Origin: a virus
Lineage: Duplodnaviria; Heunggongvirae; Uroviricota; Caudoviricetes
Length of the DNA stretch: 16,377 nt
Strand: one strand, 5' to 3'
Virus record (IMG/VR): IMGVR_UViG_2711768101_000011
A model generated the notes under the pieces. That model was not told the DNA's origin, did not search any database, and saw only the letters and a list, made by a program, of their open reading frames with translations. A program made the translations under genes and the position numbers. Below, piece after piece: positions 4,739-7,058 of the stretch. Within the stretch, counting starts at the first letter, position 1. The number at the start of each line of letters is the position of its first letter.

Positions 4739-5154
4739 CTAAGAAAATCTTGATAAATATTGGTGCGGAGGCACACCAAAATATCCTCTAAAAACACTTA
4801 CAAAATATGATGCATTGTCATACCCGCATATTCCCGCCACCTTTCCGACAGTATGGTTACTGTAGATCAATAATCTTTGCGCCATCATCATTCGTTCTTC
4901 AAGAATTAATTTACTAAACGATATTCCTTCGTCTTTTAATTTTCTTTTTAACAAACTCTCGCTCATATATAATCTTGAAGATATATCACAAAGTCTCCAT
5001 GACGCTGAGATATCCGAGTGAATAATAGCCTTAACTTTACAACCTAAGCTATTAAGACTTCCGAACAAAAAACTTTGCACTATTTTCTCTGAAGATAAGA
5101 CAGCAAGACATGCAAGTGATATTTGATTTCTAACTACATCCACGGTTTTGCTAT
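4739..5154 (-). pseudogene. AraC-family regulator (AppY/EnvY-like), C-terminal fragment separated from its N-terminus by the IS5 insertion
   Basis: Host-derived part of ORF 4739-5320 carries the AraC-type HTH region (...GICGYDNASYFVSVFRGYFGVPPHQY); the first 55 codons of that ORF are IS sequence. Confidence 0.7.
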
Positions 5155-6350
5155 GGAAGGTGCGAATAAGCAGGTCATTTCTTCCCAAGTTGACTCGCTG
5201 ATTAAAATTTCGCGGATCTGGGCCGATTTTTTTCCCGCAAACACATCGAATCAGCCTATTTAGGCTATTTTTTCCACCATTTCTGGCGTTATTTCCGGTT
5301 TTTACTGAGATCTCTCCCACTGACGTATCATTTGGTCCACCCGAAACAGGTTGGCCAGGGTGAATAACATCGCCAGTTGGTTATCGTTTTTCAGCAGCCC
5401 CTTGTATCTGGCTTTCACGAAGCCGAACTGCCGCTTGATGATGCGAAACGGGTGCTCCACCCTGGCACGGATGCTGGCTTTCATGTATTCGATGTTGATG
5501 GCCGTTTTGTTCTTGCGCGGATTCTGCTTCAAGGTTTTTACCTTGCCGGGACGCTCGGCGATCAGCCAGTCCACATCCACCTCGGCCAGCTCCTCGCGCT
5601 GTGGCGCTCCTTGGTAGCCGGCATCGGCTGAGACAAATTGCTCCTCTCCATGAAGCAGATTACCCAGCTGATTGAGGTCATGCTCGTTGGCCGCGGTGGT
5701 GACCAGGCTGTGGGTCAGGCCACTCTTGGCATCGACACCAATGTGGGCCTTCATGCCAAAGTGCCACTGATTGCCTTTCTTGGTCTGATGCATCTCCGGA
5801 TCGCGTTGCTGCTCTTTGTTCTTGGTAGAGCTGGGTGCCTCAATGATGGTGGCATCCACCAAAGTGCCTTGGGTCATCATGACGCCTGCTTCGGCCAGCC
5901 AGCGATTGATGGTCTTGAACAATTGACGGGCCAGTTGATGCTGCTCGAGCAGGTGGCGGAAATTCATGATAGTGGTGCGATCCGGCAGGGCGCTATCCAG
6001 GGATAATCGGGCAAACAGGCGCATGGAGGCGATTTCGTACAGGGCATCTTCCATGGCACCGTCGCTCAGGTTGTACCAATGCTGCATGCAGTGAATACGC
6101 AGCATGGTCTCCAGCGGATAGGGCAGTCGGCCATTGCCCGCCTTGGGATAAAACGGCTCGATGACAGCGGTCATATTCTGCCATGGCAGAATCTGCTCCA
6201 TGCGGGAGAGGAAAATCTCTTTTCGGGTCTGACGGCGCTTAGTGCTGAATTCACTATCGGCGAAGGTGAGTTGATGGCTCATGATGTCCCTCTGGGATGC
6301 GCTCCGGATGAATATGATGATCTCATATCAGGAACTTGTTCGCACCTTCC
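5155..6350 (-). mobile_element. IS5-family insertion sequence (about 1.2 kb)
   Basis: Terminal inverted repeats GGAAGGTGCGAATAAG (5155) and the reverse complement of GGAAGGTGCGAACAAG (ending 6350); 4-bp direct repeat CTAT at 5151-5154 and 6351-6354; encodes an InsH-like transposase. Confidence 0.9.
5302..6282 (-). CDS. insH: IS5-family transposase (InsH-like, 326 aa)
   Basis: [36 protein letters not shown]... is near-identical along its length to my recollection of E. coli IS5 InsH. Confidence 0.9.
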
Positions 6351-6652
6351 CTATCACAATTCAAGCATGCAACCAAGTTCTTTAACAATGAAAAATCTTC
6401 ACATTCTACTATCAAGTATGACGGATAAAACCTTCTTACAGAAAAAGGTGAGAGTGTGTAGTTTTTAAAGAAATCATTAACTGTTTTCTCCTCAACATCT
6501 ACGATCATTAGATGATCTGTATTTGACGAAAAAAGATCTTTTAAATTGTATTCAATGAGGACATCATTTCCTTTTTTAAACAAAATATCTTCTTTACCAA
6601 TTCGGACACCAAACGAGTTCAACACCAAAATGATAGAACATATGTATGGCAT
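6351..6652 (-). pseudogene. AraC-family regulator (AppY/EnvY-like), N-terminal fragment
   Basis: MPYICSIILVLNSFGVRIGKEDILFKKG... resembles the AppY N-terminus; joining this fragment to 4739-5154 after removing the IS and one CTAT copy restores one continuous frame of about 240 aa (frame arithmetic done by hand). Confidence 0.65.
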
Positions 6653-7058
6653 ATTATCCACCTGATATCATTGGGGTTACACCAGGTAAGTATAGGTGGA
6701 AAATCAATATTCGCCAGTTCAACAATAAGGAAAATCTCATTGCATCACAACTATAAAACCATGTGTTTAACTCACAAAAAACAAATCATTAAACTAATCT
6801 GTTATATTATAATAGCTGCGTGCAATAATAATATTATATGCTCTTAATATTCACTTGAAATATCTTCATATAAAAACAGATTGAATAAAATCTTTTGGGG
6901 CTGGTATGTTTACCAACATTAAATTGCATCTCAATGTTTTCTTTAGCGTGAACAGGATTTTTATACAAACTGACACTATGGGCATCATAGCGTAGTTTTT
7001 ACGATTGTAAATATCCTGCATACAGGAACTCATCACTTTCAGATGATATCGCATACAG

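Follow-up and report, generated by a model that had tools for sequence, protein, structure and literature searches.

Some AraC/XylS-family regulators carried by prophages of Escherichia coli plug into the acid-resistance network of the host. PatE and PsrB act as activators of gadE/hdeAB and of acid resistance (PMC10877973), and gadE is directly activated by AppY, as seen next to the K170E variant that served as mutant control (PMC10057817). Prophages are also targets of insertion sequences (IS). In the K-12 prophage DLP12, an IS5 element interrupts the cargo gene nmpC between the antiterminator gene Q (quuD) and the holin gene (essD), with a 4-bp duplication at its ends. For IS5, a strong YTAR target motif was described across 220 reconstructed duplications (PMC5009759). 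Here, we analyzed a 16,377-nt stretch of DNA of a tailed phage (IMG/VR record IMGVR_UViG_2711768101_000011), called the window below, in which the IS5-type element ISKpn26 lies inside the gene of an AraC-family regulator, also between Q and the holin gene.

The nmpC::IS5 allele can be read as the textbook precedent for this insertion. It is unlike it in the gene hit, which encodes a porin and not a regulator, in its canonical TTAG target, and in its element, which is IS5 proper and not ISKpn26. The locus in the window was very probably formed by one ISKpn26 transposition into a 237-codon AraC/XylS cargo gene of a Qin-like prophage, in the E. coli lineage of strains YJ6 and ETEC6. The YJ6 chromosome matched the window with 0 mismatches over 15,100 nt. 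YJ6 is a human isolate from Myanmar, and ETEC6 is of human origin from Bangladesh. In the RefSeq annotation of both strains, the locus already appears as an ISKpn26 transposase gene between two pseudogene fragments. The finding is therefore real but routine: a known knockout of a prophage cargo gene and no new system, with little import beyond bookkeeping.

Structure of the insertion

The element (Table 1) was 100% identical over its 1196 bp to at least nine E. coli plasmid copies annotated as "IS5-like element ISKpn26 family transposase", and more than 2500 plasmid records held a copy at ≥99% identity. The name ISKpn26 rests on the RefSeq annotation of the identical copies, not on the ISfinder type sequence. 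Identity to the K-12 IS5A element was 91.2% at the nucleic acid level, and to the K-12 InsH1 transposase 97.6% at the amino acid level. The two 16-bp ends matched at 15 of 16 positions, with one mismatch, and followed the imperfect IS5-family end pattern GGAAGGTGCGAA(T/C)AAG, which was also found on the ends of K-12 IS5A and IS5B. The single transposase gene was intact. Its product (RefSeq WP_021559276.1 in YJ6 and ETEC6) matched the Pfam domains DDE_Tnp_1 (E 7.9e-36) and DUF772, and scored 363 bits against the NCBIfam model for IS5 family transposases (cutoff 140). The GC content of the IS was 53.5%, compared with 31–35% for the interrupted gene.

In its length of ~1.2 kb, its 16-bp GGAAGGTGCGAAYAAG ends, its one DDE transposase of 326 aa, its near-identity to known copies and its 4-bp duplication with a central TA, the element is like IS5/ISKpn26. 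It is unlike them in its target, CTAT, which differs from YTAR at the fourth position. YTAR is a preference and not an absolute rule, and the IS5-family membership of the element stands. The element is ISKpn26, which is closely related to IS5; it is intact and cannot be told apart from the circulating copies. An earlier, sequence-only reading of the window had described an IS5-type element with intact terminal inverted repeats and a full-length transposase, a description that held in every part.

The regulator gene is split into a 5′ and a 3′ fragment (Table 1). The frame of the 5′ fragment continues for 9 codons into the IS and then stops, so that it encodes 109 aa (100 native and 9 IS-encoded residues). 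Deletion of positions 5155–6354 fused 4739–5154 with 6355–6652 into a 714-nt open reading frame (ORF) that has 237 codons and a stop codon and is free of frameshifts and internal stops. The join in one frame proposed by the sequence-only reading was thus recovered. Its length of about 240 aa needs the alternative upstream GTG at 6661 (240 aa); the ATG at 6652, which has the Shine-Dalgarno-like motif AGGTGGA directly upstream and is the start used by RefSeq, gives 237 aa. The insertion point is at codons 100–101 (coding strand ...TGT GAT AGC..., with the duplicated ATAG across Asp100 and Ser101). It falls in the segment separating the N-terminal domain from the C-terminal helix-turn-helix (HTH) domain.

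An intact version of the gene is present in E. coli REL606 (WP_001146314.1). It has the same length of 714 nt and differs from the reconstructed gene by 4 nt and 2 aa (A30D, L177I), without any indel or stop. The exact reconstructed protein of 237 aa was found intact in other isolates by an exact-sequence look-up (allele P0028, 10 contigs), in prophages collinear with the window. Because this protein exists intact elsewhere, the IS is confirmed, as far as sequence comparison goes, as the sole lesion of the gene and its flanks. This is what the sequence-only reading had supposed, and neither the alignment to REL606 nor the P0028 allele spoke against it.

The IS is flanked by CTAT on both sides. 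A 4-bp flank repeat by itself has a chance probability of p ~1/256. In the empty site of REL606 (...GGTTTTGCTATCACAATTC...), CTAT occurs once. Both IS flanks were also matched at 100% identity in contigs L138 and L141, which come from other E. coli assemblies. In L141, the identical stretch extended over 715 nt on one side of the IS and 2830 nt on the other. In each of the two contigs, the two flank alignments shared exactly 4 subject bases, CTAT. As the empty alleles have identical flanks and a single CTAT, the CTAT pair is confirmed as a true target-site duplication, far beyond chance. The direct repeat noted earlier is a real duplication, as seen from all three empty sites.

These observations show the following course of events. 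The transposase made a 4-bp staggered cut at CTAT, within codons 100–101, and the CTAT was duplicated by repair. The gene was severed between the N-terminal domain and the double HTH domain at the C-terminus, and the DNA-binding piece was deprived of promoter, ribosome-binding site and start codon.

The cargo cassette between Q and the holin gene

Q and the holin gene enclose a "four-gene" cargo block that includes the regulator gene, with the order Q, lipocalin, YbgA-family protein (TudS/DUF1722), AraC-family regulator, holin. The cassette, including the lipocalin gene, recurs in other lambdoid prophages with different early regions, in which the regulator is either 76% or exactly identical. 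Isolated lambdoid phages encode homologues of the regulator at 76–86% identity. The slot between Q and the holin gene is filled differently elsewhere, by nmpC in DLP12 and by a methylase and tRNAs in Sp9. At least 846 of the 5426 complete E. coli genomes covered ≥80% of the 1.5-kb regulator locus.

The GC content of the regulator gene (31–35%) deviates from that of the window (44%), and a terminator-like hairpin follows the gene. Terminator-like sites were more numerous than expected, with 11 found versus 4.3. By its position between Q and the holin gene, its deviant GC content and the hairpin, the regulator gene would be a lambdoid moron, that is, cargo. It had been called prophage cargo before, and its position, its GC content and the conservation of the cassette in other lambdoid prophages all agree with this. 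The regulator appears to represent a clade of PatE-like regulators that is widespread in prophages but uncharacterised, and for which YJ6 and ETEC6 would be natural knockouts.

The AT-rich region between Q and the holin gene is a repeated IS target. In REL606, an IS3 element was found in ybgA (cargo region at L002 9460–11680), and in K-12 DLP12 the IS5 element in nmpC (cargo region at L262 6530–8826). In strain YZ_2_1, an IS3-family element splits the same AraC gene.

Identity of the regulator

The reconstructed protein matched HTH_18 at residues 158–234 (59.9 bits, cutoff 33.6) and HTH_AraC at residues 201–233 (43.6 bits, cutoff 26.6). [quoted passage not shown] It was compared with PatE, GadW, AppY, YdeO, GadX, EnvY and YbcM. 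Among the proteins compared, PatE from O157:H7 Sakai (ECs_0287) was the closest characterised relative. Its identity over all 237 residues was 47.7% (E 7e-76); it rose to 64% within the HTH domain and fell to 34% in the N-terminal domain. Full-length alignments were also obtained for GadW (33.5% identity), AppY (29.8%) and YdeO (29.1%). GadX aligned in the HTH domain only (40.6%), and EnvY partially (31%). DLP12 encodes a second AraC protein, YbcM, which was rejected as a relative, with only 23% identity in the HTH domain alone. Scores against the NCBIfam equivalog models stayed far below their cutoffs, both for YdeO, the best one (111.6 bits, cutoff 348), and for GadX (90.8 bits, cutoff 500).

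The regulator is like PatE (Z0321/ECs_0287) of enterohaemorrhagic E. coli O157:H7 in being prophage-borne, in its size of ~240 aa, and in being an AraC/XylS protein with the same two-domain layout. Unlike it, the patE gene is located at the far end of prophage Sp1, past the tail-fibre genes, and not between Q and the holin gene, and identity in the N-terminal domain is low (34%). Judged by these comparisons, the two are homologues, not orthologues. A scan of the Sakai prophages Sp6, Sp9 and Sp10 showed no AraC gene.

With AppY (DLP12), GadW, YdeO, GadX and EnvY of K-12, the regulator shares the AraC/XylS subfamily, the size and a conserved DNA-binding lysine, equivalent to K170 of AppY. Their identity to it is nevertheless below orthology, and for EnvY and GadX it covers a part of the protein only. 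The label "AppY/EnvY-like", given by the sequence-only reading, is appropriate at the subfamily level. Beyond that it is less so, because PatE and GadW are closer than AppY, and EnvY aligns in part only. AppY and EnvY orthology is also at odds with the gene location, between Q and the holin gene here but flanking ompT for appY and envY.

Presumed role of the regulator and effect of its loss

The intact protein would be a moron-type regulator, placed between Q and the holin gene, with an AT-rich upstream region and a terminator of its own. By homology to PatE, and less so to GadW, AppY and YdeO, it would act on the host gadE and hdeAB promoters. The case for the intact regulator feeding the AR2 glutamate-dependent acid-resistance network of the host seems reasonable but evenly balanced. 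The interrupted allele is most likely null, and one redundant input would be gone with it. We only infer a phenotype of the insertion, such as an altered regulation of acid resistance.

Several findings weigh against this picture. The targets of the regulator are taken only from relatives which are ≤48% identical to it. Its N-terminal domain, which presumably serves in sensing or dimerisation, is only 34% identical to that of PatE, so that it may respond to another signal and perhaps serve another regulon. The promoter-like hexamers in the region upstream of the gene, which would be its own transcription signals, showed no enrichment over shuffled sequence. Finally, an ORF with a GTG start runs from position 5320 in the IS to the end of the HTH fragment at 4739, which leaves a slight chance of an HTH product.

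The main alternative is a different role, in which the job of the regulator is local. It would control the genes for the YbgA (TudS/DUF1722) protein and the Blc-like lipocalin, or the phage late functions, and the insertion would alter the cassette only. Adjacent genes are often controlled by AraC-family regulators, the cassette has stayed together in different lambdoid prophages, and the low identity of the N-terminal domain to that of PatE would fit a separate task. Against it, the characterised close relatives PatE, PsrB, AppY, GadW and YdeO all act on host AR2 promoters, and the HTH domain, by which DNA is bound, shares almost two thirds of its residues with that of PatE. Local control is thus possible but rather improbable.

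Much less probable is that the insertion has created a new function. This could be a constitutive HTH-only activator made by read-through from the transposase gene, a dominant-negative effect of the 109-aa stub on partners of the GadW/GadX type, or an altered expression of the downstream lysis genes. IS5 elements are known for switching on operons next to them. The transposase gene is oriented toward the HTH fragment, and the open frame from GTG 5320 into this fragment spans 193 aa. However, this GTG is part of the coding sequence of the transposase, out of its frame, and is not preceded by a Shine-Dalgarno-like motif; we rejected the fusion ORF as a likely mechanical one. All Met codons of the HTH fragment are inside the HTH domain. 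There was also no sign of selection, with the insertion in 2 of 5426 genomes and in one lineage. For the same two pieces, the N-terminal stub titrating GadW/GadX/YdeO-type partners and the HTH-only read-through protein, we consider it very unlikely that they retain activity. If they did, the acid-resistance response of this ETEC-related lineage would be rewired, which goes beyond the loss of one input.

The pseudogene call of RefSeq in YJ6 and ETEC6 thus stands for a clean knockout by a single IS event, revertible on paper to an existing intact allele. As a probable natural null, this allele could be of use in work on the links between prophage regulators and the acid-resistance network.

Spread and age of the insertion

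With a 120-nt junction probe, the insertion was detected in only two of the 5426 complete E. coli genomes, those of YJ6 and ETEC6. On both chromosomes, the junction was the sole place matching the IS end. Over 15.5 kb, the ETEC6 prophage and the window were separated by 2 substitutions, besides an additional IS1 in ETEC6. As the prophages are near-identical and share the same junction, the insertion is a single event, inherited by both strains. The sequence-only reading had called it recent. In line with this, neither the gene nor the IS showed decay; still, the insertion predates the split of YJ6 and ETEC6.

The extra element of ETEC6 is an IS1A, inserted at window position ~859–866. The alignments on its two sides shared 8 nt, as would be expected of an IS1 target duplication. 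Further along, ETEC6 also carries an IS2.

A decay of the gene before the arrival of the IS is highly improbable. The region between Q and the holin gene does collect IS in other strains (ybgA in REL606, the same gene in YZ_2_1, nmpC in K-12). Against prior decay, the reconstructed protein equals the intact alleles residue for residue, and the empty-site contigs match the flanks at 100% identity, 2.8 kb of upstream sequence included. At the sequence level, prior decay is refuted by the intact identical allele together with the identical flanks of the empty site.

An assembly artefact that produced the IS with its flanks, or a chance CTAT repeat around an IS brought in by recombination, is next to negligible: apart from the general risk posed by repeats nothing favours it, the single ISKpn26 copy on the YJ6 and ETEC6 chromosomes leaves no partner for recombination, and both versions are refuted by the identical junctions in two independently finished, complete genomes, which make the junction real, and by the L138 and L141 empty sites with exactly one CTAT.

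Target choice of ISKpn26

Exact matches to a 35-nt ISKpn26 end were collected from IMG/VR and the GTDB species genomes, and the four bases outside the end were read. YTAR was found in 183 (89%) of 206 unique left-end contexts. CTAT was found in five contexts and its reverse complement, ATAG, in two, together 7 (about 2–3%), while every other non-canonical tetramer occurred at most twice. Duplications confirmed at both ends were YTAR in 30 of 32 cases; the remaining two were one CTAT, in contig L090 and independent of the present one, and one CAAG.

CTAT is a minor but recurrent target of ISKpn26 which keeps the central TA, and it is no anomaly of the present event. The remark of the sequence-only reading that CTAT is not the YTAR-type target was right, yet with 7 of 206 contexts in this class, the tetramer is no sign of an unusual event. 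Its use points to a looser specificity at the outer base of the tetranucleotide. The counts bring a small quantitative gain on ISKpn26 target choice (YTAR in 89%, CTAT/ATAG in about 3%).

In the IMG/VR contigs L089 and L090, two different ISKpn26 insertions, at CTAT and at CTTA, were found ~15 bp apart in the same target, which suggests that non-YTAR sites are tolerated in a local hot spot. The K-12 IS5A copy in CP4-6 (L134 1956–3150) had the flanks TTAT and GGAG, without a target duplication, which would fit a rearrangement of this copy at a later time.

Other features of the prophage

The prophage carrying the window is a Qin-like lambdoid prophage, with its genes on the minus strand. Its early part has the order cro/cI, YdaT, DUF977, QueH, hokD/sok, rem, ydfU and Q. 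The cargo cassette follows, and after it come the holin gene essQ, ydfR, lysozyme, Rz-like, cspI, gnsB, terminase and portal genes.

Table 1 Features of the window, with positions counted from its first nucleotide.
Feature	Position	Strand	Details
cspA thermoregulator match	2392–2776	-	Rfam, 114 bits; spans the leader of the prophage cold-shock gene cspI
Class II holin gene essQ	4333–4548	-	Downstream cassette boundary
Terminator-like GC hairpin with T-run	4649–4670	-	70 nt past the regulator stop, ahead of the holin gene
AraC-family regulator gene, 3′ fragment	4739–5154	-	Codon 101 to stop, entire double HTH domain; RefSeq pseudogene HXS64_RS12215 "missing N-terminus"
ORF from IS into HTH fragment, probably mechanical	4739–5320	-	193 aa; GTG start in IS, through the IS end into the HTH fragment; no ribosome-binding site visible
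Target-site duplication, copy 1	5151–5154	.	CTAT; single copy in empty sites
ISKpn26 (IS5 family)	5155–6350	-	1196 bp; transposase on minus strand
Terminal inverted repeat IRR	5155–5170	.	16 bp, transposase 3′ side; GGAAGGTGCGAATAAG
Transposase gene	5302–6282	-	326 aa, intact; Pfam DDE_Tnp_1 and DUF772; NCBIfam transpos_IS5_4
Terminal inverted repeat IRL	6335–6350	.	16 bp, transposase 5′ side; reverse complement GGAAGGTGCGAACAAG
Target-site duplication, copy 2	6351–6354	.	CTAT; single copy in empty sites
AraC-family regulator gene, 5′ fragment	6351–6652	-	Codons 1–100 and 2 nt; RefSeq pseudogene HXS64_RS23170 "missing C-terminus"
Intergenic region upstream of the regulator	6653–7058	-	About 400 nt, AT-rich (~30% GC); Shine-Dalgarno-like AGGTGGA; promoter-like hexamers at 7011–6984 and 6777–6750
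YbgA-family protein gene	7059–8018	-	319 aa; 2-thiouracil-desulfurase-like (TudS, PF04463) and DUF1722; cargo neighbour
Blc-like outer-membrane lipocalin gene	8211–8735	+	174 aa; NCBIfam Blc subfamily, 312.6 bits (cutoff 267); opposite strand, just after Q
Late antiterminator gene Q	8891–9268	-	Phage_antitermQ; upstream cassette boundary
sok antitoxin RNA	11300–11474	-	Rfam, 114 bits; adjoins hokD
Epoxyqueuosine reductase gene queH	11918–12583	-	Early region of the prophage
Methyltransferase pseudogene fragment	12685–12870	-	C-terminus missing; common to YJ6, ETEC6 and REL606

The sok RNA and hokD are the type I toxin-antitoxin pair of the prophage. The methyltransferase fragment is an old lesion of this prophage type, because it is found alike in YJ6, ETEC6 and REL606. 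Two genes related to nucleoside modification, those for the YbgA-family protein and for QueH, are carried by the same prophage.

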